A DNA stretch of 64,000 nt from Candidatus Omnitrophota bacterium (GCA_018812825.1 JAHJCJ010000067.1:383-64382), one strand, 5' to 3'; shown: positions 5,173 through 52,779, counted from the first letter of the stretch. Numbers and translations: made by a program. Notes: a model not told the origin generated them from the sequence alone.

Positions 5173-6931
5173 CTTTAAATTGAAGCTGATTCTTTCTTAT
5201 GTTTTTGTGATCCTGGTTTCTTTTGGATTTATTGCCTTCTTTTTAGATAAGAACTTAGAAGAAAATTCCCTCCATAATATTCAAGCCTCTTTAATCAATC
5301 AGGCCTATCTAGTTGAAAATCAATTTACTGCTGAAAATATTAAGAAAGAAGATATTGCGCATTTAGAATCACTCATTACTACTTTAAGTGGAAAAATAAA
5401 ATGTCGCATTACCGTAATTAATAATCTTGGCAAAGTTCTTGCTGATTCAGAAAAGTCACAAAAAGAAATCCCAGAGATGGAGAATCATCTTTATCGGCCG
5501 GAGGTAAAGATGGCTTTGGCCAGTGAGGTTGGTATAGATACACGCTATTCCTCAACACTAAAGTTAGATATGTTATATGTTGCTTTGCCCATAAAAGAAA
5601 ATAAGGAACTTATAGGAGTTATTAGGCTCGCGCTTCCTCTTGAGAGCGTAGAAAAGACTTTAAATGAGATTCGCAAGACAATTTTATTTGGTTTGATTTT
5701 TGCTTTAGCTTTAGCTTTTGTTTTAGGTTCAATAATAGCAGCTCAAACTATAAGGCCGATTAACAGGATGATTCAGGTTTCTCGCAGATTTTCAAAAGGC
5801 GATTTTAGCCGTAGGATTATGCAAGTTTCTAAAGATGAAATAGGGGAACTCGCTGCCACCTTAAATAAGATGGCTCAGGATATAGAAGATAAAATCAAAG
5901 AAGTCAAGACACAGAATCAGAAGTTGGCTGCTATTTTTAATAGCATGATTGAAGGGGTTATTGTTATAGATAAGGCAGGGTATATAATTTCGGTTAATCC
6001 AACGATTGAGAAAATATTTAGTATCTTAAGAAAAGATGTTGAAGGAAAAGTATTTCTGGAGGCAATACGCAATAACGATATTGCTGAAGTTATCAGCGCG
6101 GCCTTAAAAAGCGGAAAATCCGTATCAAGCGAGATAGCGCTTATTTATCCAGTGCATAGAATATTTGAAGTTAACGCTACGCCAATCTTTGATAATAATG
6201 TTATTAGCGGATGTTTGGTGGTTGTGCATGATATAACCGAGATAAGGAGGCTGGAGACCGTAAGAAGTGATTTTGTGGCCAATGTCTCTCACGAACTAAA
6301 AACCCCGCTTACTTCTATTAAAGGATTTGTGGAAACGCTTCTCGAGGGTGCTTTAGGTGACAAGGAAAATAACCGTAATTTTTTAAAGATTGTACATGAT
6401 CATGCTGAGCGTCTTGATAACTTGGTCAATGATTTACTTTCTTTGTCGCACCTTGAATCAAAAGAAATAATGCTTAAGAAGACAAACTTTAATCTCAAGC
6501 AGCAGGTTGAAGGTGTTATTTCGGGTTTTAGATCTCAGTTAAAAAAGAAGGATATAGAAATTAAAAATGAGCTGCCTGTTAGTATTTCGGTAGCAGCTGA
6601 TAAGAATAGATTAGAGCAGGTAGTTACCAATTTAATCGATAACGCAATAAAGTTTAACAAGGAAAAAGGTTTTGTCAGGATTTATGGTGAGGAAATAAAC
6701 GGTAAAATCAAGATTACCGTAGAAGATTCAGGAATTGGTATCCCCGAGAAAGATATTCTTCGCATATTTGAGCGTTTCTACCGCGTAGACAAAGCGCGCT
6801 CGCGCGAACTCGGCGGCACGGGCCTTGGGCTTTCTATTGTCAAACACATCGTTGAGTTGCATAGCGGAAGTGTTGGCGTGGAAAGTACTGAAGGTTTTGG
6901 TTCAAAATTCTGGTTTATTCTCCCCAGGTAG
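5156..6931 (+). CDS. phoR: PhoR-like sensor histidine kinase (TM, HAMP, PAS, HisKA, HATPase_c)
   Basis: N-terminal TM segments, HAMP-like 'RPINRMIQVSRRFSKGDF', H-box 'SHELKTPLTSIKGF', and G-boxes 'GGTGLGLSIVKHIVELHSG'; its start overlaps the phoB stop. Confidence 0.85.
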   Translation: MNMKISFKLKLILSYVFVILVSFGFIAFFLDKNLEENSLHNIQASLINQAYLVENQFTAENIKKEDIAHLESLITTLSGKIKCRITVINNLGKVLADSEKSQKEIPEMENHLYRPEVKMALASEVGIDTRYSSTLKLDMLYVALPIKENKELIGVIRLALPLESVEKTLNEIRKTILFGLIFALALAFVLGSIIAAQTIRPINRMIQVSRRFSKGDFSRRIMQVSKDEIGELAATLNKMAQDIEDKIKEVKTQNQKLAAIFNSMIEGVIVIDKAGYIISVNPTIEKIFSILRKDVEGKVFLEAIRNNDIAEVISAALKSGKSVSSEIALIYPVHRIFEVNATPIFDNNVISGCLVVVHDITEIRRLETVRSDFVANVSHELKTPLTSIKGFVETLLEGALGDKENNRNFLKIVHDHAERLDNLVNDLLSLSHLESKEIMLKKTNFNLKQQVEGVISGFRSQLKKKDIEIKNELPVSISVAADKNRLEQVVTNLIDNAIKFNKEKGFVRIYGEEINGKIKITVEDSGIGIPEKDILRIFERFYRVDKARSRELGGTGLGLSIVKHIVELHSGSVGVESTEGFGSKFWFILPR

Positions 6932-7053
6932 TCGCAATACCTCCAAAAAAGTTTTACCCACATTTTACTTACCCTTGAAGCAGATTTAATGTCTTCATTA
7001 TATACTCTTTTTGTGAATTGAAAGCCTGCCTGCCGGCAGGCAGGAAAGGAGGT

Positions 7054-7141
7054 GACATGTTGGATGGATTTGGTTTGTTGTATATGTTTAGGATATTAAC
7101 TGAATTAAAAAAGCAATCAAAATTGCGAAGGGAGAGAAGAT
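7054..7141 (+). CDS. Possible 28-aa leader ORF (MLDGFGLLYMFRILTELKKQSKLRRERR), approximate coordinates
   Basis: Strong RBS 'aaggaggtgac' directly before its ATG; its stop overlaps the start of the 7140 gene; preceded by a perfect 20-bp GC palindrome. Confidence 0.2.
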
Positions 7142-7796
7142 GATGAAGGCGATTTTCGTGATAATCGGATTAACTCTGTTTTTAGCAACAAAAGTTTATG
7201 CCTATGATGATGGAGATTTTCAGGTATGGAACACTGATATAGAGGAATACAAGGTAAATAAGGATCTCAAGGTTGCATTTGAGGAAGAGTTTCGCTGGGG
7301 AGGCAATGTTTCTGAATTCTATTACCAGCATTATGACCTTGGATTGTCTTACGCATTAAACAAATACTGGAGTATCGGAGGTGGGTATCGTCAGATTTAT
7401 GAATTAAGCAAACGCAAGTTTAAAATGGAGAATGCGCCGTACTTAACTGCTACACTGTTATTATCTGGCGGAGGATTCAGTTTCGAAAGCCGTAATCGCC
7501 TAGAGTATCGGTATTTTGAATATAAGGCTGATTCTGGACGCTATCGCAATAAATTCACGCTTAAGTATCCTTTAAAGTTTACAAAAATAGAAATTCAGCC
7601 TTTTGTATCTGATGAAGTGTTTTTTGGTTTTGGAGGGACAAATCAGTTTAATCAGAATAGGGTGTCTGCTGGTTTAGGGATGAATTTTACAAAGAATATA
7701 AAGGCTGAAGTTTATTATATGCTAGTTACCGCTAAAAGCTCCGGTAAATGGATTGATTCTAATGTATTAGGAACTAAGCTAAAAATAGCATTTTAA
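7140..7796 (+). CDS. Outer-membrane beta-barrel protein (DUF2490-like), possibly Pho-regulated
   Basis: Signal peptide, alternating amphipathic beta-strand pattern with Gly/Tyr/Phe/Arg-rich segments, and a C-terminal Phe ('KLKIAF'); located between phoR and pstS. Confidence 0.4.
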   Translation: MMKAIFVIIGLTLFLATKVYAYDDGDFQVWNTDIEEYKVNKDLKVAFEEEFRWGGNVSEFYYQHYDLGLSYALNKYWSIGGGYRQIYELSKRKFKMENAPYLTATLLLSGGGFSFESRNRLEYRYFEYKADSGRYRNKFTLKYPLKFTKIEIQPFVSDEVFFGFGGTNQFNQNRVSAGLGMNFTKNIKAEVYYMLVTAKSSGKWIDSNVLGTKLKIAF

Positions 7797-7797
7797 G

Positions 7798-7816
7798 ATT
7801 TTACACAGATTTTACA
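7798..7816 (+). promoter_or_regulatory. Candidate Pho box (two 'ATTTTACA' direct repeats 11 bp apart) upstream of pstS
   Basis: 'ATTTTACAcagATTTTACA', a 7/8-bp direct repeat with one helical-turn spacing as in PhoB binding sites, ~100 nt upstream of the pstS start. Confidence 0.35.
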
Positions 7817-7921
7817 TTAACTTCATATAGGTGTAATATAGGTAAAATATAATATAAACAAATGGCACCCCGCGCTAATTGGAATTGCGCGGGTGTTGTG
7901 TACGTACACAAGGAGGAAGAT

Positions 7922-8776
7922 ATGTTTAGAAAGTGGTTATTCGTTTTGATAGCACTTATGTTTGTAACTTCTGCATTTGCGGGGAAAGATAAAAATTCAA
8001 TACAGGTCAAAGGTTCGGATACAATGGTGAATCTAGGCCAAGCCTGGGCTGAGAAATATATGGAGAAGAACGCAGGTGATTTTGTAGCAGTTACAGGTGG
8101 TGGTTCTGGCACAGGGTTATCAAGCCTCATAAGCGGCAGTTGTGATATTGCTATGAGTTCAAGAAACATCAAAGAAAAAGAAATTGCTATTGCCAAACAG
8201 AAAGGAATAAACCCTAACGAAATAAAAGTTGCATTAGATGGGCTTGCAGTGGTAGTAAACCCGGGTAATCCTATCGGCAAGCTTACTTTGTCTCAGCTTG
8301 CAGATATTTTTACCGGAAGGGTAACCAATTGGAAGGAAATTGGTGGTAAAGATGAGAAGATTGTTATTCTCTCACGCGAAGTCAATTCCGGAACCCATGT
8401 CTATTTTAAGGAGCATGTATTAAGAAAGAACGATCCTAACAGTAAAGAAGAATTTGCGCCAAGAGCACTAATGCTTTCATCTTCTCAGGCAATTGCTGAT
8501 GAAGTGGCTGGAAACCCTGCCGCTGTTGGATATTATGGAATGGGCTACATATCCAAAAAGCAAAAACCCGTAAATATAGCCAAAGATGAAAAATCGGAAT
8601 ATGAAGCACCGACAATAGAAAATGTCATAAACGGTAATTATCCTATCTCAAGGCCGTTATTTCTTTACACCAATGGCACACCAGAAGGGTTAGTAAAGAA
8701 ATTTATAGATTTTATGCTTTCTAAAGAAGGCCAGGATATTGTGTTGGCAACTGATTTTGTGCCGGTTAACAGATAA
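7922..8776 (+). CDS. pstS: Phosphate ABC transporter substrate-binding protein
   Basis: ATG at 7922 after RBS 'aaggagga' (the track ORF 7862 starts upstream); signal peptide; 'GSGTG...SSL' and 'YPISRPLFLY' PstS-family motifs; followed by pstCAB. Confidence 0.9.
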   Translation: MFRKWLFVLIALMFVTSAFAGKDKNSIQVKGSDTMVNLGQAWAEKYMEKNAGDFVAVTGGGSGTGLSSLISGSCDIAMSSRNIKEKEIAIAKQKGINPNEIKVALDGLAVVVNPGNPIGKLTLSQLADIFTGRVTNWKEIGGKDEKIVILSREVNSGTHVYFKEHVLRKNDPNSKEEFAPRALMLSSSQAIADEVAGNPAAVGYYGMGYISKKQKPVNIAKDEKSEYEAPTIENVINGNYPISRPLFLYTNGTPEGLVKKFIDFMLSKEGQDIVLATDFVPVNR

Positions 8777-38202: not shown

Positions 38203-38280
38203 GGCCCCATCGTCTAGCCTGGTCCAGGACGTCAGGTTCTCAGCCTGTAAACACCGGTTCAAATCCGGTTGGGGCTACCA
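38203..38280 (+). tRNA. tRNA-Glu (anticodon CTC), CCA encoded
   Basis: Manual fold: acceptor GGCCCCA/TGGGGCT, anticodon stem TCAGG/CCTGT with loop TTCTCAG, T arm ACCGG-TTCAAAT-CCGGT, 3' ACCA; overall similar to bacterial tRNA-Glu. Confidence 0.8.
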
Positions 38281-38438: not shown

Positions 38439-38954
38439 ATGAAAAGATTAACTCCAGCCTGTAGATTAGTTTTATTTTCGCTTTGGCATAAGCGAGATTA
38501 CTTTAGCAGAAAATCCATGCTGGAGAAGGACGGTTCTTTCTATTATGACGATAAAAGATTGTCTGAGGAAACTGGATTATCTGGAAAGACGATACTCCGA
38601 GTTAGGCGGTTTCTGGTGGGGAATGGTTATATAATAGTAGAAATAGGACACTTTAAAGGCAAGGCAACTAAGTATTGGGTTTGTAAGAAGCCCGACAGAA
38701 AGTCTCCCTTTAGCCCTTTGTCAAAGGTAGACAATCAGTTCCCCAAAGCCCCCCAAAATGTCCCTATAAACAAAGTGAATAACAAAGATAATAACAATAG
38801 AGATTTAATTAAGGATAAACCTTTAGAAACATTTACTAAGGAAGGTGTAAGGTCTTTAGTTAATGTTCAAGGGGTTGAGTGGGTTAGGGGGCTTTTGCTT
38901 AGGAATGGAGTGGATGAGGCAGAGGTGGCTGGATTATTAACAAGCACAAATTAA
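38439..38954 (+). CDS. Hypothetical protein with a putative HTH ('RLSEETGLSGKTILRVRRFL'); island cargo
   Basis: ORF with RBS; HTH-like segment; first gene after tRNA-Glu. Confidence 0.3.
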   Translation: MKRLTPACRLVLFSLWHKRDYFSRKSMLEKDGSFYYDDKRLSEETGLSGKTILRVRRFLVGNGYIIVEIGHFKGKATKYWVCKKPDRKSPFSPLSKVDNQFPKAPQNVPINKVNNKDNNNRDLIKDKPLETFTKEGVRSLVNVQGVEWVRGLLLRNGVDEAEVAGLLTSTN

Positions 38955-39410: not shown

Positions 39411-39700
39411 TCCTCCCGGGCAATTTAATGGGTTTTTACGAGGGGTTAAAGGATGGTAAACAAACGAACGTTTATTTATTTTTTGAACTCCCCCCTATGG
39501 GTATATAATATGTGGTAAAAGGAAGTAGCTATGAGCTGGAAAATGTTTGGGCAGATAGTATTGTTAATGACAATCGGTGCTTTAATTTTCATGCTTATGA
39601 AATATGTTATGATGCAGTGTCCGATAATGGGTAAAAGTATGAAATGTTCTATGCACACCGTCCAAAAGTAAAAGAACGGTTTAAGTAACCTACTATTATA

Positions 39701-39789
39701 ATCATTCTACATAAGGGCTGGACTTAACCGTTCAGCCCTTTTTCTTTGCTCACTAAATTGCTTACAATCTTGGGATTTGTGGTAAAATA
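39701..39789 (+). repeat. Island repeat copy 1: terminator hairpin (GGGCTGGAC-ttaacc-GTTCAGCCC + T-tract) followed by a conserved promoter-like segment
   Basis: Near-identical to the copy at 40905-40993; hairpin at 39715-39738, T-tract 39739-39747, then 'ctcactaaattgcttacaat...tgtggtaaaata' (extended -10 'TGgTAAAAT'). Confidence 0.7.
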
Positions 39790-39925
39790 TGATTTAGGAA
39801 TACTTCCGGTATAGCTTATTATTAGTATTGGATATTTTAGAAACAGTTTTTTAGGTTTTGGGTGAAAAAAGGGAGGCCAGACGAGGCTCAAGAGGATATT
39901 TTTAATAATTACAGCGCTGTTTCTT

Positions 39926-40594
39926 TTGGGAGCAGATTATTCAGAGGAAGGATTTTACGTGCGCAGAGTAAATATGATTAATTCGCAGATAAAGGCAAGG
40001 GGCGTAAGTGATGAGCGTGTACTCAAGGCAATGTTTAAAGTGGAAAGGCATTTGTTTGTTCCGCTTGCGCATAGGGACCTTTCTTATGAAGACGGCCCTC
40101 TGCCTATCGGTAAAGGCCAGACTATTTCTCAACCCTATATAGTTGCTTTGATGACAGAGCTATTGGAATTAAAAGAAGGGGAGAAGGTTCTGGAAATAGG
40201 AACAGGCTCAGGGTATCAAGCAGCAATTTTAGCAGAGTTAGCCAAAGAGGTTTATACTATAGAGTTACTTAAGCCGTTGGCGGAGCGCTCCCAGAAATTG
40301 CTTAAAGAATTAGGCTACGAAAACATTAAGGTTAAACATGGAGACGGTTTTTTAGGTTGGTCGGAATATGCTCCTTTTGATGCCATAATTGTTACTTGCG
40401 CTCCGGAAGAAATTCCTCCTGTTTTGTTTGAGCAATTAGCTGAAGGCGGGAGGCTGGTTATTCCTGTTGGTTCAGACTATCAGGAGTTGAGGCAAATTAA
40501 GAAAAAAGAAGGAAAAATTATATCCAAAGATATTATTTCGGTAAGATTTGTACCAATGTTAAGAGGCGAGGAAAGTAAAAAGCAATTTAAGTAA
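39926..40594 (+). CDS. pcm: Protein-L-isoaspartate O-methyltransferase
   Basis: 'GKGQTISQPYIVALMTELLELKEGEKVLEIGTGSGYQAAILAEL' is a classic PIMT motif I/II; the true start may be the internal 'MINSQ' (~39974). Confidence 0.85.
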   Translation: MGADYSEEGFYVRRVNMINSQIKARGVSDERVLKAMFKVERHLFVPLAHRDLSYEDGPLPIGKGQTISQPYIVALMTELLELKEGEKVLEIGTGSGYQAAILAELAKEVYTIELLKPLAERSQKLLKELGYENIKVKHGDGFLGWSEYAPFDAIIVTCAPEEIPPVLFEQLAEGGRLVIPVGSDYQELRQIKKKEGKIISKDIISVRFVPMLRGEESKKQFK

Positions 40595-40614
40595 CACTAT
40601 TCACTCTTCCGTAG

Positions 40615-40680
40615 TGGCTGGGCTTAACCGTTCAGCCTTTTAGTTTGTAATTTTAGGATTTGTGATAGAATATATTGTAG
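40615..40680 (+). repeat. Island repeat copy 2 (degenerate)
   Basis: 'tggctgggcttaaccgttcagcc ttttagtttg taattttaggatttgtgatagaatata' shares the hairpin loop/3' arm and the downstream -10-like segment with the other copies. Confidence 0.5.
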
Positions 40681-40904
40681 GTAGTAGGTTTGTATATGCT
40701 AAACTAAAAGAAGGGATTATGATAAAAAAAAATAATTATATGGGGGTTGATTCTGTTAGCAGCATATTTTTTTTACAAAAAATACATGGTTGATACATTG
40801 GAACCGTTCTTTGGAAGAATTCAAAGGGATAGAGGTAAGGTAGAGCTTTTTCAACAAAAAGTTCCAGACTACAAGGTTGAGGAATAAATAATCAGTAACA
40901 TCAT

Positions 40905-40993
40905 AATCATTCTACATAAGGGCTGGACTTAACCGTTCAGCCCTTTTTCTTTGCTCACTAAATTGCTTACAATTTTTGAATTTGTGGTAAAAT
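40905..40993 (+). repeat. Island repeat copy 3 (near-identical to copy 1, including the upstream 'atcattctacataa')
   Basis: Direct comparison with 39701-39789: same hairpin, T-tract and 'ctcactaaattgcttacaat' + 'ttgtggtaaaata'. Confidence 0.7.
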
Positions 40994-41040
40994 ACGATTA
41001 ATGGGTTTTTATTTGAGATAAAGCAAAAGGGGAAACAATA

Positions 41041-42324
41041 ATGAAGCTCCAAAGTCGTAGAATAATGCTGTTTGTCTTAATGGGGATATTATTTTTGGGT
41101 ATTCATTTTGTTTTTGCTGAAATAATTACTCTTAAATCAGGCGGGACTGTAGAAGGGGAGATTATTGAGAAGACGGATAAATACGTAAAAATATATTTAC
41201 ATGGAGTGAAGCTTAAGTATTTTATGGATGAGATTAAGGATATTGATGGGCAGAAGACTGTTTCTTCAGACAGTAATCATTTTCCTCCTATTAATGAATC
41301 CGCGTTATTTGAAGCTGTAAAGAATGTTGATATTCTCAAGGTTAAACAGCTTATTAGTGAAGGTGTAGATGTAAACGTAGTAAATTATTCTGGAGCTACT
41401 CCTTTGGTTTGGGCTATAAACGGATGCCATAAGGATATAGTTGAGCTATTACTTTCTAAGGGAGCAAAAGTCAACACTGTAGATTCTGGTGGTATGACAC
41501 CCCTAATGTGGGCGGCACATAGGTGCAATAGGGATATAATAGAATTACTTCTTTCTAAAGGTGCAGATGTTAAAATGAAGGATAAGAATGGTAAAACAGC
41601 TTGGATTTGGTCGGTAGTAAACCGGAATAAAGATGCTAAAGACGTAGTGGAATTTTTTCTTTCTAAAGACGTGGATGTTAATGCAAAAGACAATTCTGGC
41701 GGAACAGTTTTAATGTGGGCAGCTGGCATGGAAAATAAAGAAATCGTTGAGCTACTTCTTTCTAAAGGTGCAGATGTGAATGCAAGAAATAGCCAAGGTT
41801 TAACAGCGTCAATGTATGCTGGAAAGAATGGATTTAATGAAATAGCGGAGCTTCTTAGGTTAAAGGAAGAACAAGTGCAACCTACAAAAAACTCCGGTAA
41901 AGTTGATTATTATGAAACGCAAAAAACGGTTAAGGCAGATGTTTCTTATTTACCTCCTAGTGGTTGGCTGGAAGGCCGAAATGCTCACAATAGTCCAATT
42001 GTTTATTCTCCTGATGGGAAAGCAACCATATTAAATCTAGTAAGAGGACCAGCGAATATAATTACTTTCCAAAATTCCTTATTACTTTTTAGGCAGAAGG
42101 CAAAGCCAATTTCCGAAGAAAAAATTACCTTTTTAGGTAATCCGTGTTATGTTTTTACTAGCGAAGAAACAAATAGTCGCGGAGGCAAGGTAAAAACCAT
42201 GACATATATGTTTCTTGCAAAAAGTAAGCTCTATACGCTTGTTTATGGTGCTGTGCCAGATTACTTCGATACTGATTATCCATCTTTTAAGGATTTCTTA
42301 AATACTTATTGCATAATGGACTAA
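41041..42324 (+). CDS. Secreted ankyrin-repeat protein with an N-terminal 'LKSGGTVEGEIIEKTDKYVK' module
   Basis: Signal peptide; ~5 ANK repeats ('GATPLVWAINGCHKDIVELLLSKGAKVN', 'GMTPLMWAAHRCNRDIIELLLSKGADV', ...); its N-terminal 40 aa is ~50% identical to the N-terminus of the ORF at 1487. Confidence 0.7.
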   Translation: MKLQSRRIMLFVLMGILFLGIHFVFAEIITLKSGGTVEGEIIEKTDKYVKIYLHGVKLKYFMDEIKDIDGQKTVSSDSNHFPPINESALFEAVKNVDILKVKQLISEGVDVNVVNYSGATPLVWAINGCHKDIVELLLSKGAKVNTVDSGGMTPLMWAAHRCNRDIIELLLSKGADVKMKDKNGKTAWIWSVVNRNKDAKDVVEFFLSKDVDVNAKDNSGGTVLMWAAGMENKEIVELLLSKGADVNARNSQGLTASMYAGKNGFNEIAELLRLKEEQVQPTKNSGKVDYYETQKTVKADVSYLPPSGWLEGRNAHNSPIVYSPDGKATILNLVRGPANIITFQNSLLLFRQKAKPISEEKITFLGNPCYVFTSEETNSRGGKVKTMTYMFLAKSKLYTLVYGAVPDYFDTDYPSFKDFLNTYCIMD

Positions 42325-42354
42325 TAGACGCTTTGTCTATAGCCATTATTAAAA

Positions 42355-42412
42355 GAGCTGGACTTAACCGTTCAGCCCTTTTTCTTTGCTCACTAAATTG
42401 CTTGCGATTTTG
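42355..42412 (+). repeat. Island repeat copy 4
   Basis: 'agctggacttaaccgttcagccctttttctttgctcactaaattgcttgcgatttt' is the same hairpin + T-tract + conserved tail. Confidence 0.65.
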
Positions 42413-42616
42413 AAAGAGAGTGGCATAATTAAAAAAAGGAGAAAAAAGTTGAGTAAGAAGGATATTTTAAACATGAAAAGGTAAGTGTTCTTGCCTCTCT
42501 GAATTAATTTTCTGCATTCGGAAATATGATATCTTACGATTTGGTGTTCTTGTACAATTACCTAAGCCATGTTATAATTTTAGAATGGTTTAGATCTCAT
42601 AACGAGAGAGGAAACA

Positions 42617-43249
42617 ATGGGATTAATATCGCTTTTATTTAGTAACCCGGCCATTTTTGTCATTCTGGCTATTATACTTCTTTATTCTGTTATCCTACAT
42701 GAAGTTGCTCATGGTTGGGTGGCGCATCTTTTTGGCGATGATACGGCTATTCTTTCCGGTAGGCTTACCCTTAATCCTGTATCACACCTTGATCCCATAG
42801 GCACACTCATGCTTTTCCTGGTAGGGTTTGGTTGGGCAAGGCCGGTGCCGGTAAATTACTCTAGTTTTAGTAATACTCGTTTTGGGTTATTCTGCGTTGC
42901 CTTGGCAGGATGTTTAACGAATATACTTATAGCAACAACAACATTAATCATATTACAGTTTGGGGTTGTTAATACCAACTCACTGCTTTTCTCTATTTTG
43001 CCCATTGTTATAAAAATAAATATTATCTTGGGTGCCTTTAATCTGATCCCGATTCCTCCGCTTGATGGTTCAAAAATCTTAATGAGTTTTCTTCCTTATA
43101 AAGCGCAAGAAAGCTTAGGGAGTATAGAGCCTTATGGGTTTTTTATATTAGTTTTTCTGCTATTCACGGGGTTATTGAATCCCGTGATAATTTTTATGCA
43201 GAATTTAATATATGGTTTGATAGGTTTTTTATTTAGTTTCTTCAGATGA
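42617..43249 (+). CDS. Site-2-protease-family (peptidase M50-like) membrane metalloprotease
   Basis: HExxH inside a TM helix ('ILHEVAHGWVAH') and 'GRLTLNPVSHLDPIGT' typical of the short S2P-like family. Confidence 0.65.
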   Translation: MGLISLLFSNPAIFVILAIILLYSVILHEVAHGWVAHLFGDDTAILSGRLTLNPVSHLDPIGTLMLFLVGFGWARPVPVNYSSFSNTRFGLFCVALAGCLTNILIATTTLIILQFGVVNTNSLLFSILPIVIKINIILGAFNLIPIPPLDGSKILMSFLPYKAQESLGSIEPYGFFILVFLLFTGLLNPVIIFMQNLIYGLIGFLFSFFR

Positions 43250-43294
43250 ACAACAAATTATGAATATTTTAACATTCTCAATCCTTAAAAGATC

Positions 43295-44107
43295 ATGCTA
43301 ATGATTCTAAAAATCAGTATAGTTTCATTATTAATTATTGGTTCTTTACTTTTATTCTTGAGATACATCGAAACACACACCCTTTTCTTTCCCACAAAAG
43401 AAATAGCCTCTTTTCCTGACCGAGCTAATCTTAAGTTCCAAGATGTTTCCTTTAAGGCAACCGATGGTGTGAAATTGAATGGGTGGCTTATTCTGTCCAA
43501 AGATTCAGAATACACAATCCTTTTTTGTCACGGCAATGCAGGTAATATTACTCATCGTATAGAGAAATTAAAATTTTTCAATGACTTTGGGTTTAGTGTT
43601 TTTATATTTGATTATCGGGGCTATGGTAAAAGTCAGGGAAAACCATCGGAAAAAGGTTTCTACAGAGACGCCAAAGCTGCCTACGAATATTTGCTGTCCC
43701 GAGGCGTAAATGGTAACCAAATTATAGGCTATGGTGAATCTATAGGAGGGGCAGTCATTGTTGATTTAGCTTCGAGAGAAGGATTAAAAGCAATAATATT
43801 AGATAGTACCTTAACTAGTGTAAAAGATATGATAAAATTCGCCTATCCATTTATTCCTTATTGGGTATTTTCTAGTCGGTTTGATTCAGAAACTAAGATA
43901 AAGTCGGTTAAAATTCCTAAGTTAATTATACATAGCCTAAATGATGAAATTGTTCCTTTCCAATTAGGCAAGAAACTCTATGAAGTTTCTCCTGAGCCAA
44001 AAGATTTTTTACAGATTCAAGGAGGACATAATAGCAATTTCTATGAATCTGAGGGGCTCTTAAGAAAGAAAATAGGGTTTTTTATTGAAAGTCTAAAAGA
44101 ATCTTAA
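43295..44107 (+). CDS. Alpha/beta-hydrolase-fold protein
   Basis: 'ILFCHGNAGNITHR', nucleophile elbow 'GESIGG', and a C-terminal 'HSLNDEIVPF...GGHN' (Ser-Asp-His arrangement). Confidence 0.7.
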   Translation: MLMILKISIVSLLIIGSLLLFLRYIETHTLFFPTKEIASFPDRANLKFQDVSFKATDGVKLNGWLILSKDSEYTILFCHGNAGNITHRIEKLKFFNDFGFSVFIFDYRGYGKSQGKPSEKGFYRDAKAAYEYLLSRGVNGNQIIGYGESIGGAVIVDLASREGLKAIILDSTLTSVKDMIKFAYPFIPYWVFSSRFDSETKIKSVKIPKLIIHSLNDEIVPFQLGKKLYEVSPEPKDFLQIQGGHNSNFYESEGLLRKKIGFFIESLKES

Positions 44108-44119
44108 GTTTAAAGGGTG

Positions 44120-44162
44120 AGAAGGCTGGACTTAACCGTCTGGCCCTTTTTCTTTGTAAAAT
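44120..44162 (+). repeat. Island repeat copy 5 (hairpin with compensatory changes GGCTGGAC/GTCTGGCC + T-tract)
   Basis: 'aaggctggacttaaccgtctggccctttttctttg'; base pairing is preserved through G-U pairs. Confidence 0.55.
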
Positions 44163-44793: not shown

Positions 44794-45064
44794 ATTAAGC
44801 AACTTTATATTACCATTCATATCTTTAAGAAGCCCAGAAGGAATAACTGCCGTATTTGGGATTGCGATACTAATATTATTCTTTTTAAATCCAGGGCACA
44901 TTAATCTACCAGATTTATGCCTCATTAAAAAGATTTTCGGGTATTGTCCAGCCTGTGGCACAACAAGGGCTCTGGCGTGTTTCTTCAAGGGGGAATTTAT
45001 AGAAAGTATAAAATATAATTTCAATGTTATATTAACTGCACCTTTGATTACCCTTCTTTTTTAA
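44768..45064 (+). CDS. DUF2752-like membrane protein
   Basis: 'GYCPACGTTRAL' is the CPxCGxTR motif of DUF2752; two TM segments. Confidence 0.45.
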   Translation: MANRLIRHKLSNFILPFISLRSPEGITAVFGIAILILFFLNPGHINLPDLCLIKKIFGYCPACGTTRALACFFKGEFIESIKYNFNVILTAPLITLLF

Positions 45065-45438
45065 GAAATCTTATTAAAGTAACAATAAAATACGGATTTT
45101 TTCAGAGAGCAGGGTAATAGAAGCATTGTGGAAACGAATCGTTAGTAAGAGGGTCAGGTCACCTATTTCCCTTAGTCAACTTTCAGGAAGAGGGAAAGTT
45201 TTGAAAGGCAAAATAAGGCCTAAGGAGATATTTCTTAAAAACAGGCGAAAGAACACAAATCACTGCTGAAAGCACCACCCAACACGTCCAGGATGACCAT
45301 AACTTCCTGCCAGTGAAGCTTCTCAAACTCTTTCAAAATTACGTTGACGACTTAGTATTGTTATAGTAATCTATCAATGAGAATTTAGTTCTATAAAAAC
45401 AACTTGCGTTTTGGGTTTGCTCCTTGTGAAGGTTATTA

Positions 45439-45622
45439 GGTCATCAACCGAGTCCTGCGGTTTATCTGCGGGGCCGTTGGGGCTAAAATTAACCGGTTCT
45501 CCCACCTAGGTCTAAAACATGTGGCGGGACTACGCCGTTTAGCAGAAAAAGAATCGGCTTGAAATCCGGTTGGGGCTATTAGGTCATCAACCAGGTCTTG
45601 CGCGCAGCCGTAGAGATTATAC
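45439..45622 (+). repeat. att-like direct repeats: two copies of 'GTTGGGGCTA' (the tRNA-Glu 3' end; the second extends to 'GAAATCCGGTTGGGGCTA') interleaved with two copies of 'TTAGGTCATCAACCRAGTCYTGCG'
   Basis: 17-18 nt identity to the T-loop-to-3'-end of tRNA-Glu (38260-38277); arrangement A-B-~95nt-B-A' in a gene-free 0.7-kb region. Confidence 0.5.
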
Positions 45623-45794: not shown

Positions 45795-46037
45795 ATGCGT
45801 AAACATTTAGGTTTCTTAAAGGTTTCCAGCGCAGTGGTTAAGGTAGCTGCCTGGATTTTTTTATTTCTGGGGATTTTAGGTGGAGTTTCTTTGCTTTTAG
45901 GCTCAGTGCCGGGTAACCCCCGTTGGATGGGGGCTATTATCTTAGCTTTTTATGTTTTTGTTTTTTTCTTTTTATTTCTTACTGCAAAAATAGCCGATCT
46001 TTTGGTTAAGGTTATCAACGAGATCAAGGCGGAGTAA
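45795..46037 (+). CDS. Small membrane protein (two TM helices)
   Basis: RBS 'agggaggg' upstream; hydrophobic helices 'VAAWIFLFLGILGGVSLLLG' and 'IILAFYVFVFFFLFL'. Confidence 0.3.
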   Translation: MRKHLGFLKVSSAVVKVAAWIFLFLGILGGVSLLLGSVPGNPRWMGAIILAFYVFVFFFLFLTAKIADLLVKVINEIKAE

Positions 46038-51676: not shown

Positions 51677-51693
51677 GGGTCAGGCACTGACCC
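51677..51693 (+). repeat. REP-like perfect hairpin GGGTCAG-GCA-CTGACCC
   Basis: Perfect 7-bp stem/3-nt loop; copies at 52063-52076 (same orientation, imperfect) and 52681-52697 (inverted) flank the RAYT gene. Confidence 0.6.
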
Positions 51694-51714
51694 AATCTTA
51701 AGGGTGTCCCCAAT

Positions 51715-52062
51715 ATGAAGATAAAAATAATTAATCTAACCAAGAATCAAGTTTTGGCCGAGGATGTTTTATTGTCAACCAGTTTCTTAAAGAGGCTAAA
51801 AGGGTTATTAGGTTATGAATCTTTTGAAGAAAATCATGCAATGATACTGCGGCCTGCTAATTCCGTGCACACTTTCTTTATGCGTTTTCCGATTGACGTG
51901 CTGTTTGTTGATAGGAATAATATAGTGGTAAAAGCGGTTAGTAATATGGGGCCTTTTAAAATTACCAGAATTTATTTTAAATCCGCTTTTGTTATTGAGT
52001 TGCACGCCGGAATGCTCAACGCAACTCAAACTGCAGAAGGTGACTACTTGCAAATCCAGTAA
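51715..52062 (+). CDS. DUF192-family protein
   Basis: 'EENHAMILRPANSVHTFFMRFPIDVLFVDRNNIVV' matches the DUF192/COG1430 pattern; small, in the Tad locus. Confidence 0.5.
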   Translation: MKIKIINLTKNQVLAEDVLLSTSFLKRLKGLLGYESFEENHAMILRPANSVHTFFMRFPIDVLFVDRNNIVVKAVSNMGPFKITRIYFKSAFVIELHAGMLNATQTAEGDYLQIQ

Positions 52063-52076
52063 GGGTCAGGCACTGA
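52063..52076 (+). repeat. REP-like element copy 2 (imperfect)
   Basis: 'gggtcaggcactga', same orientation as 51677. Confidence 0.45.
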
Positions 52077-52099
52077 TTCAACCGTAATAGTATCCTTAT

Positions 52100-52597
52100 C
52101 TATCGCTCGAATACATCAAATTGATTTATCAGATGGTCTTGTTTTATCCCGAATCTGCTGTTCCAACTGCACCAACGGTATTCCGCAGGTGATTTTACTA
52201 AATTTGCTCTTGCCGGATTAAATTCTACGTAGGTGATGCAATCTAAAAGGTATTTATCTTCTTGTACCAGCATGTCTTTGTATCTTCCTTGCCATAGGTG
52301 ACCCGCCTTATTATATTTTTCATTAAACCAAATTGTGTATGTTTGATTTAATCCTTGCATAATTTTTTGCAAGTCTTTTCCCAGAAGTACTTTTATTATT
52401 AGATGAATATGATTTGGCATTAAACAATAGCCGTATAATTCAAACCGATATTTATGTTTATAGTGCTTAAGCAAATCTAAATATCTTAGAAAATCGCATT
52501 CATCGATAAAAGTTATTTGTTTTTGATTTCCTCTAGCTATGACATGGTGTATCGAATTATCTATGATCAACCTACTCGGTCTTGGCATATTTATCAC
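52100..52597 (-). mobile_element. IS200/IS605-like Y1 (HUH) transposase of the REP-associated (RAYT) type
   Basis: 'HHVIARGN', HUH motif 'CLMPNHIHLII', 'WQGRYKDMLV' and 'YVEFNPARANLV' are typical of TnpA(REP)/IS200 transposases; flanked by inverted REP-like hairpins. Confidence 0.75.
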
Positions 52598-52680
52598 CTC
52601 CTATTATTAATTGACGTAAAACAGGCTGAAATCTAACAAAGAGTTTGCAAAGGGACACCTTTAGCCCTTAGGTTAAAGAC

Positions 52681-52697
52681 GACCCTCGATTGGGTTA
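52681..52697 (-). repeat. REP-like element copy 3 (inverted orientation, upstream of the RAYT start)
   Basis: 'gggttagtgcctgaccc'; its reverse complement matches the 51675-51698 copy at 22 of 24 positions. Confidence 0.5.
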
Positions 52698-52779
52698 GTG
52701 CCTGACCCTGGTTTGGGGTTGACAAAGATTGGAATATGCGCTATATATTAGGTAAGTAAATGTCCAATCTGGAGGTTCT

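Follow-up and report, generated by a model that had tools for sequence, protein, structure and literature searches.

A sequence-conserved hairpin family at gene ends of Omnitrophota: probable intrinsic terminators often fused to reused promoter-like modules

One hairpin that is conserved in sequence as well as in structure at the ends of many genes is TRIT, a terminator-position element found in several species of Mycobacterium (Gardner et al. 2011, PMC3152330). Palindromic and for the most part bidirectional, it lies at about -8 relative to the stop codon, largely within coding sequences, and occurs in 147 copies in one genome; its authors inferred a factor that reads the sequence of the motif (PMC3152330). 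Putative mobile promoters, closely similar non-coding upstream sequences at unrelated genes within and between genomes, have been described as well, with no known mechanism of mobility (Nijveen, Matus-Garcia, van Passel 2012, PMC3575422). Here we describe a family of hairpins noticed as five copies between positions 39,701 and 44,162 of a 64,000-nt stretch of DNA from Candidatus Omnitrophota bacterium (GCA_018812825.1, JAHJCJ010000067.1:383-64382; hereafter, the window). A reading of that sequence alone had taken them for ~90-nt terminator-promoter cassettes, one behind each gene of an island at a tRNA-Glu gene. Comparison with other genomes makes it very probable that the hairpin is an intrinsic (Rho-independent) terminator belonging to a lineage-wide Omnitrophota family, often fused to reused promoter modules.

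Like canonical intrinsic terminators, the Omnitrophota hairpin is a G+C-rich stem-loop followed at once by a U-tract and located behind a co-oriented gene. Unlike ordinary terminators, which share structure but not sequence, it keeps a 24-nt sequence in ~35 species. By behaviour and not by homology, its closest known analogue is the mycobacterial TRIT, since in both cases sequence and structure are conserved at many gene ends of one lineage. However, in contrast to TRIT, the Omnitrophota hairpin has a canonical U-tract, is one-directional, lies a median of 38.5 nt past the stop codon and is fused to reused putative promoters; it is present in 1 to >10 copies per genome sampled and has no sequence relation to TRIT. 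The parallel with putative mobile promoters concerns two downstream modules, designated below P1 and P3, which are likewise reused ahead of unrelated genes. Here, however, the reused promoter-like sequence is joined to a reused terminator at fixed spacing, and P3 could be the shared promoter of a regulon.

The window contains five co-oriented hairpins of the form GGCTGGAC-TTAACC-GTTCAGCC followed by a T-tract, starting at 39715, 40616, 40920, 42355 and 44123. The motif GGCTGGACTTAACCGTTCAGCC is matched with 0-3 mismatches at 39716, 40616, 40921, 42356 and 44124, always on the plus strand, with no further match in the rest of the 64-kb window and none expected by chance (0 in 100 dinucleotide-preserving shuffles of the window); the five same-orientation copies are thus real. 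All five were detected by a terminator scan. Their stems of 8-11 bp with 4-6 G-C pairs, and their RNA folds of -12.6 to -18.2 kcal/mol, are those of an intrinsic terminator, and each is followed by a T-rich tract and separated from the preceding plus-strand open reading frame (ORF) by 17-45 nt. Copy 1 (GGGCTGGAC-TTAACC-GTTCAGCCC, 39715-39738, T-tract 39739-39748; fold -18.2 kcal/mol, z = -6) lies 45 nt past a 46-aa membrane ORF, and copy 2 (GGCTGGGC-TTAACC-GTTCAGCC with T-tract, 40616-40647; -12.6 kcal/mol) 22 nt past the stop codon of the gene for PCMT (protein-L-isoaspartate methyltransferase). Copy 3 (40920-40943, to 40953 with its T-tract) follows a second small membrane ORF (40747-40887) by 34 nt. 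Copy 4 (GAGCTGGAC-TTAACC-GTTCAGCCC with T-tract, 42355-42388; -14.6 kcal/mol) is found 32 nt past an ankyrin-repeat protein gene and copy 5 (AGGCTGGAC-TTAACC-GTCTGGCCC with T-tract, 44123-44156; -17.2 kcal/mol) 17 nt past the second gene of a pair encoding an M50 peptidase and an alpha/beta hydrolase. The rule of one copy after each gene does not hold, since this pair shares a single hairpin and the genes for ORF171, ORF139, zf-HC2, TM2 and DUF2752 have none. Nor does copy 5 display the compensatory stem changes that had been ascribed to one copy. Its three transitions are all in the 3' arm (GTTCAGCC to GTCTGGCC) and convert the pairs U-A, G-C and G-U into U-G, G-U and G-C; the changes are one-sided and pairing is kept through wobble.

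The same preference for wobble is evident in the family at large. Among 117 unique contexts from the metagenome matches listed, for which the 3' arm was left free in the search, there are 39 transitions that keep the pair (opposite G or U), 2 that break it and 3 transversions. With 5 of the 8 arm positions able to take a pair-keeping transition, 39 of 41 corresponds to a binomial p = 1.4e-6. Since these pair-keeping changes would be A-C mismatches on the complementary strand, the constraint is on the sense strand and RNA-like. In an alignment of 65 distinct variants, 93.7% of the cells are paired, two-sided change occurs somewhere in 5 of the 9 pairs, and the covariation score is above that of 495 of 500 shuffles. 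The covariation is modest because most of the variation is one-sided wobble. Folding and covariation across copies, which the sequence-only reading had proposed as a check, are in favour of a structured RNA.

Position relative to genes is equally regular. Of 168 evaluable unique contexts, 146 have a co-oriented ORF of at least 60 aa whose end is no more than 200 nt 5' of the hairpin, at a median gap of 38.5 nt, and the remaining ones are mostly behind shorter ORFs; in 11 of the 168 the hairpin is inside an ORF. The T-tract is present in nearly all genome hits, with the consensus CTTTTTnTTT and T at positions +2 to +6 in 46-53 of 55. An A-rich upstream side is found in only 8 of the 168 contexts, indicating that the element is one-directional, and in 50 contexts the downstream gene is convergent. 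On hairpin-rich contigs, the copies end mono- or bicistronic units and one 9-kb operon, and are never operon-internal. The proteins flanking the hairpin are mostly unrelated between loci, which rules out the terminator of one conserved gene. The island genes of the window show no synteny with other hairpin loci, apart from a common N-terminal domain of the ankyrin protein. No tRNA gene adjoins the hairpin cluster in 13 of 15 other loci and thus, as far as the loci reach, these clusters are not tRNA islands.

One genome for each bacterial and archaeal species (596 Gb) was scanned with an exact pattern that did not include the T-tract, which yielded 45 loci in ~35 species-level metagenome-assembled genomes (MAGs), ~30 of which are labelled Omnitrophota or Omnitrophica. 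Matches in Kosakonia and Pirellulaceae are inside genes and lack the T-tract, in line with a few chance matches in 596 Gb. Single 21-nt hairpins with a T-tract were observed in Flavobacterium sp. 3HN19-14 (L039), a Parasphingorhabdus MAG (L043) and a deltaproteobacterial MAG (L028); by a rough estimate, three such non-Omnitrophota terminators are a plausible number by chance, although transfer is also conceivable. A scan of metagenomes with the 3' arm left free added at least 120 loci on metagenome contigs, and variants such as L029:2916 were covered by scans for Hamming distance and pairing. Contigs of 0.49, 1.19 and 1.54 Mb have one exact match each, at the low end of a range that reaches about ten copies on one 28-kb contig, and most genomes contain only 1-2 exact copies in the exact-pattern scan. 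No exact match was found in viral contigs, and blastn with the 111-nt cassette returned no match in plasmid and phage collections. Rfam has no family for the window hairpin (best, ctRNA_p42d, 22 bits against a cutoff of 50) and returned nothing for three other loci; in the literature, we found no account tying Omnitrophota to a conserved terminator. The genome-wide search recommended in the sequence-only reading thus uncovered a lineage-wide repeat family, present at ordinary operon ends and as single copies on large contigs. Genome-wide occurrence is what that reading had named as speaking against an element specific to the island's cassettes, and lineage-wide occurrence is what we observe. 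The tie to the island stands locally, in that the window copies are only inside it and four relatives lack the hairpin, but the element is not island-specific.

The unit common to all five window copies is only ~35 nt long and consists of the hairpin and T-tract. Over 100 nt, identity between copies 1 and 3 is 95%, so that a cassette of about 90 nt is real for these two but not for the whole set; copy 4 shares 67%. The sequence CTCACTAAATTGCTTACAAT, said to be conserved 3' of the T-tract, is limited to copies 1, 3 and 4 and is missing from copies 2 and 5, whereas the tail AATyTTrGrATTTGTGrTArAATA is limited to copies 1, 2 and 3. An extended -10-like tail does follow copies 1-4, in two layouts, but copy 5 shares the hairpin and T-tract only and then continues into a different module. 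A TGnTAnnnT-type -10 with a -35-like hexamer 16-18 nt upstream was found as CTTACA-16-TAAAAT in copies 1 and 3 and as TTGCGA-16-CATAAT in copy 4.

All these promoter-like tails are on the plus strand. That of copy 1 (39749-39788) comprises CTCACTAAATTGCTTACAAT, a -35-like CTTACA (39761-39766), a 16-nt spacer and a TG-extended -10 TAAAAT (39783-39788); its TTGGGATTTGTGrTArAATA portion recurs 3' of the hairpin in other species. In copy 2, the tail TTAGGATTTGTGATAGAATA (40648-40672) lacks the CTCACTAAATTGCT insert, has a TG-extended -10 TAGAAT at 40666-40671 (extended -10, TGATAGAAT) and is 96.7% identical over 30 nt to a locus in another MAG (L037). The copy 3 tail (40954-40993) has CTTACA at 40966-40971 and a TG-extended TAAAAT at 40988-40993, with the start of the ankyrin gene 48 nt further on. 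That of copy 4 (42389-42429) consists of CTCACTAAATTGCTTGCGAT and then TTGCGA, a 16-nt spacer and a TG-extended CATAAT (42402-42429). Copy 5 is followed by module P3 (44156-44207; GTAAAATAGCTTGTTAGATTTT...GCGACTATT...GGAGG), directly 5' of the zf-HC2 gene (44216).

At least three such modules (P1, P2 and P3) are reused 3' of the hairpin across species and ahead of unrelated genes, and the spacing between hairpin and module is fixed within each module type. P1 (TTGGGATTTGTGrTArAATA) resembles an extended -10 promoter and is found 3' of window copies 1-3 and in at least eight other contexts; it was also seen once without the hairpin. P2 (GTAATTAGATCAA...AATAAACTAGGACG...) is another recurring module. 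P3 (TTTGTAAAATAGTTAGTTAGATTT-N-ACGTCTATTAT-GTAGGAGG) is present in 36 unique contexts in all, including window copy 5, at equal spacing to the hairpin. Written as GTTAGAT-N13-ACGTCTATTAT followed by GGAGG, P3 occurs in contexts from L013 to L160, the window example preceding a 52-aa zf-HC2 anti-sigma-like gene. With its CGTC-type -10, it looks like a promoter read by an alternative (ECF-like) sigma factor, in which case the genes behind P3 would form a regulon and would not be carriers of a copied promoter. P2, in the form GTAATTAGATCAA..TACTTCG..AATAAACTAGGACGTATATATAGTG..GTTGAACTTCGCAATTGGGAG, was observed in L015:1989-2240, L015:3070-3240, L002, L029, L031 and L045, with 200-300 nt without an ORF downstream and a tandem duplicate in L015; it has no match in Rfam and could be a leader or small RNA of a new type. 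In the window, the copy 4 tail is followed at 42436-42484 by a strong Shine-Dalgarno sequence, AAAGGAG, and an 11-codon ORF (TTG start, SKKDILNMKR, stop), which may be a leader peptide, and a second promoter-like site, TGTACA-16-TATAAT (42551-42578), lies 5' of the M50 gene.

The coding DNA upstream of the hairpin bears on how the family has spread. In ~20 of 148 contexts, a conserved coding tail ending in FFTRPKVKEQFK and a stop codon precedes the hairpin, with a spacer of ~20 nt. Variation at third codon positions indicates that the tail is translated, and it is borne by proteins that differ in length and sequence. It corresponds to a transmembrane helix followed by (Y)FFTRPKVKEQFK at the C-terminus of small membrane proteins of 121-373 aa (e.g. 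L015:1126-1605 and ~20 other loci), for which no NCBIfam model matches. The local version of the tail is the short reading frame MFYAHRPKVKERFK with its stop codon at 39644-39688 (plus strand), encoding ...HRPKVKERFK; it is not in the frame of the 46-aa ORF called at 39531-39671, which suggests that 39531-39688 contains a frameshift, is a pseudogene or was misassembled. PCMT (39926-40594) ends in ESKKQFK, and non-coding DNA 5' of the L034 hairpin has 96% identity to the final 27 nt of its gene. We infer that these ragged shared pieces were left behind when gene 3' ends and intergenic DNA were copied and pasted; they do not resemble the sharp ends of transposons. A check for transposable elements of the miniature inverted-repeat type revealed neither terminal inverted repeats nor target-site duplications at either end of the 100-nt stretch that copies 1 and 3 have in common, and the ends are ragged between copies. 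Correia elements of Neisseria are small intergenic repeats that bring promoters and affect the transcript ends of their neighbours, and have terminal inverted repeats and TA target duplications. Unlike in these elements, the boundaries of copies 1 and 3 show no terminal inverted repeats or TA duplications.

In the mechanism that we propose, the sense-strand RNA would end the transcript of the upstream gene through its G+C-rich stem of 9-11 bp and UUAACC loop just before the U-tract, and the intergenic unit would both stop the upstream transcript and start the next one. In the window, the hairpins would divide the island cargo into five separately transcribed units. The family would spread through copy-and-paste of gene 3' ends and intergenic pieces by ordinary recombination, leaving the donor tail KVKEQFK with its stop codon, after which purifying selection would keep the hairpin sequence. 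The original suggestion of a portable terminator-promoter module that insulates genes fits all the computational evidence and extends to many other genomes.

Several points weigh against this picture. Both termination and initiation at the hairpins are deduced from sequence and comparison. The promoter scan as a whole barely beats shuffled expectation (42 found versus 34 ± 6), and the promoter call is therefore based on the cross-species reuse of the modules and not on the scan. Of the MAGs with exact matches that are not labelled Omnitrophota or Omnitrophica, some carry the labels Planctomycetia/Planctomycetales, Saccharibacteria, Colwellbacteria and Woesebacteria, which are taken as given. 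Finally, constraint on structure alone accounts neither for the identical loops of all four orthologous pairs described next nor for a stem sequence that persists where the loop differs, and more than generic termination may be acting on the sequence.

Orthologous sites were compared in four pairs of loci with homologous upstream genes, three of them with 47-76% protein identity and a fourth in which the match is limited to short ORFs (38 and 55 aa; 56%). The hairpin and six T-tract bases are 80-90% identical in all four pairs, and the non-coding flanks are at the shuffled level (0.52-0.63). The loop with its closing pair (CTTAACCG) is identical in all four. Additional copies in the fetched loci, which had not been picked by the search patterns, carry the TTAACC loop on altered stems, some of them compensatory (GACTGGAC/GTTCAGTC, GGTTGAAC/GCTTAACC), or the GGCTGGAC/GTTCAGCC stem with the loops TTAAAAC, TTTCT, TTCAT, TTAACT, TTAATT and others. 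The family forms a discrete set, though with some variation. A lineage-specific protein or RNA that recognises the UUAACC loop or the GGGCUGGAC stem, in addition to the terminator role, could account for such conservation by aiding termination, protecting 3' ends or acting in mRNA processing or regulation, although we consider it unlikely. The invariance of the loop with its closing pair (CTTAACCG) between orthologues with randomised flanks is what a reader of the sequence would impose; the stem being kept with other loops (TTTCT, TTCAT, TTAAAAC) and the confinement of changes to a narrow, wobble-connected set are consistent with it, and the authors of the TRIT study reached the same conclusion for their element (PMC3152330). 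However, loops vary among paralogous copies, no candidate factor was identified, and high identity could also result from young copies and from concerted evolution in multi-copy genomes. Moreover, 1-2 exact copies, as in most genomes, are few for a dedicated factor. As a separate observation, GGACUUAACC, located in the 5' arm and loop of all hairpin copies (e.g. 39720-39729 in the window), is the exact complement of GGUUAAGUCC, which we take to be a universally conserved stretch of 16S rRNA near E. coli position 1090. The match is probably a coincidence, the chance of a 10-nt match somewhere in the rRNAs being roughly estimated at ~6%.

A broader and rather doubtful proposal is that the hairpin goes beyond generic termination and is a standard part of a pool of promoter-gene-terminator units shared among Omnitrophota. 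Its exact sequence would then be kept by a lineage-specific factor that reads its loop or stem, or as portable homology through which units could be gained, exchanged or lost at any other copy without a dedicated integrase.

A recombination site of a cassette system, comparable to integron attC sites and acted upon as a folded strand by a dedicated recombinase, had been offered as the alternative to a terminator, and is very improbable. The likeness is that a repeated, strand-asymmetric hairpin ends each unit of a co-oriented array, here within an integrated island, and that one indel is bounded by copies. The indel distinguishes two loci with 90% identical flanks: L070 has SPFH, hairpin and archease, while in L142 SPFH and a hairpin are followed by a 129-aa gene, another hairpin, a run of three genes, the third of which ends in VMEQFK, and a last hairpin before archease. 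The difference amounts to 2.2 kb, or two units, and both breakpoints are in hairpin copies, overlapping by 45 nt inside the repeat. Hairpin copies thus mark the gain or loss of two units, but such an event needs no more than ordinary recombination between direct repeats of 45 nt. The same pair of loci differs in the RtcB gene, which in L070 (999 aa) contains an extra 1.5 kb (6699-8227 on the reverse complement) relative to the 90%-identical gene of L142 (5033-5038), probably an intein.

The enzymes that a cassette system would need are not seen either. In agreement with the earlier remark that intI is absent, no integrase is among the genes annotated at 31-52 kb, a 21-kb stretch, and a crude check of all window frames for the tyrosine-recombinase box II, H-x-[LMIVF]-R-H-[TSAG], gave one hit only, in a stop-filled frame. 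The search for a recombinase elsewhere was equally negative: among 71 proteins of the ten most hairpin-dense loci, no recombinase family recurs, the recurrent families being TPR, serpin, radical SAM, PMT_2 and Pribosyltran. The attC-like loop holds in part, because ACTTAAC fits RYYYAAC, but its partner GTTCAGC fails GTTRRRY and the two strings are adjacent (1 nt) and not complementary, so that there is no RYYYAAC/GTTRRRY pair at the ends and no R''/L''-L'/R' architecture. The site is 24 nt long instead of 57-141 nt. Each unit is preceded by its own promoter-like module, whereas cassettes are as a rule promoterless, and the T-tract that is always found 3', as expected of a terminator, is needless for recombination. 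Single copies on Mb-scale contigs and at ordinary operon ends do not suit a cassette site, and homologues of the hydrolase change neighbourhood without the hairpin. Gene plus hairpin as a fixed travelling unit was rejected as well: hydrolase homologues (76-87% identical) occur in three other neighbourhoods, and the two for which DNA was available lack the hairpin.

A REP/REPIN-type element, with the RAYT (Y1 transposase) gene at 52100-52597 as the source of its spread, is still less probable. This RAYT-like gene (NF047646, E = 2.5e-20, 72.8 bits against a cutoff of 80) is 6.5 kb from the island, and REP, BIME and REPIN sequences are likewise short imperfect intergenic hairpins behind genes, repeated in the genome. 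However, all copies in the window, and almost all elsewhere, occur singly and in the orientation of the gene instead of forming inverted doublets; they always have the U-tract and are not associated with RAYT. In L171, where the equivalent position beside DUF192 is taken by a Y1_Tnp gene, there are no terminator hairpins. On both sides of the window's RAYT is a REP of another sequence, GGGTCAGGCACTGA, in two direct copies and one inverted, and the RAYT was therefore ruled out as the mobiliser of the terminator hairpin. The gene is on the minus strand, and within 51677-52721 the repeat GGGTCAGGCACTGA(C/T)(C/T)CAA is direct at 51677 and 52063 and inverted at 52695, a classical REP/RAYT layout.

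Competent bacteria carry short conserved sequences common to related species, inverted pairs of which can double as terminators. Such uptake-type sequences, and the location of the hairpin upstream of conserved promoter-like modules, are all that favours a DNA-level signal, either a DNA uptake sequence or an inverted-repeat operator of the downstream promoter, and there is hardly any chance of it, given that the arms are not a perfect palindrome and the commonest form keeps a G-T mismatch, that variation follows RNA wobble rules on one strand only, that copies are few (from ~1 per Mb to 10 per 28 kb), with orientation tied to the upstream gene and 11 of 168 inside ORFs, and that the spacing to the -35 differs by module while the 50 contexts with a convergent downstream gene have no promoter to control.

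All five window copies are inside a 7.3-kb island inserted at a tRNA-Glu gene. The tRNA-Glu(CUC) gene (38203-38280, plus strand) forms its left end (attL side), and a 19/20-nt direct repeat of the tRNA 3' end (45559-45578, plus strand) its right end (attR). The sequence just past 45578 matches that 3' of the intact tRNA in L171, one of four related contigs (L168-L171) reached via homologues of a flanking FIST protein. The site is empty in L168 (85% identical) and L171 (77%), where tRNA-Glu is followed after ~160-330 nt by an 80-aa ORF and a rotamase-RcpC-secretin operon; in the window, this ORF and operon begin at 45795. At the same tRNA site, L170 (91%) has STT3 and a radical-SAM gene and L169 (87%) a cargo of HTH, MerR, lactamase_B and AAA genes. 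Empty sites and differing cargo in relatives show that the island is real. When up to six mismatches are allowed, the homologous 14-21 kb of all four relatives are still free of family hairpins, indicating that the five hairpins came with the island or arose within it. No integrase was found at the island border, only the phage/plasmid replication-initiator-like ORF171 at the left end, right behind the tRNA (38439-38954, plus strand; phrog_428, E = 5e-9; phrog_186, DnaD-like, E = 3e-7), and no recognisable gene is present at 45064-45558. For the small membrane ORF between copies 2 and 3 (40719-40887), the ATG at 40719, which is preceded by a ribosome-binding site, is one base out of frame with the long ORF (TTG start, 40747), across A9 and T8 runs; this offset may be an assembly error or a slippery homopolymer. 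With two empty relatives and three different cargos (window, L169 and L170), the site beside tRNA-Glu(CUC) is, in this group of Omnitrophota, a hot spot of integration. A second partial tRNA end with its downstream sequence, at 45431-45485, suggests serial integrations.

For the window, the terminator reading would mean that five units, each transcribed on its own, make up the 7.3-kb tRNA-Glu island. If the pool of swappable units were real, it would amount to a natural means of plugging in transcription units that are complete in themselves. What is normally conserved in intrinsic terminators is the shape and not the sequence, and the Omnitrophota hairpin, almost unchanged behind unrelated genes in dozens of species of this uncultivated phylum, would be the second clear sequence-conserved case after the mycobacterial TRIT. 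It would serve as a simple marker of where transcription units end in Omnitrophota MAGs and would supply natural terminator-promoter parts that are insulated, as well as a lead on two questions: whether factors that read the sequence of terminators exist in some lineages, and whether repeated terminators act as breakpoints of gene gain and loss.

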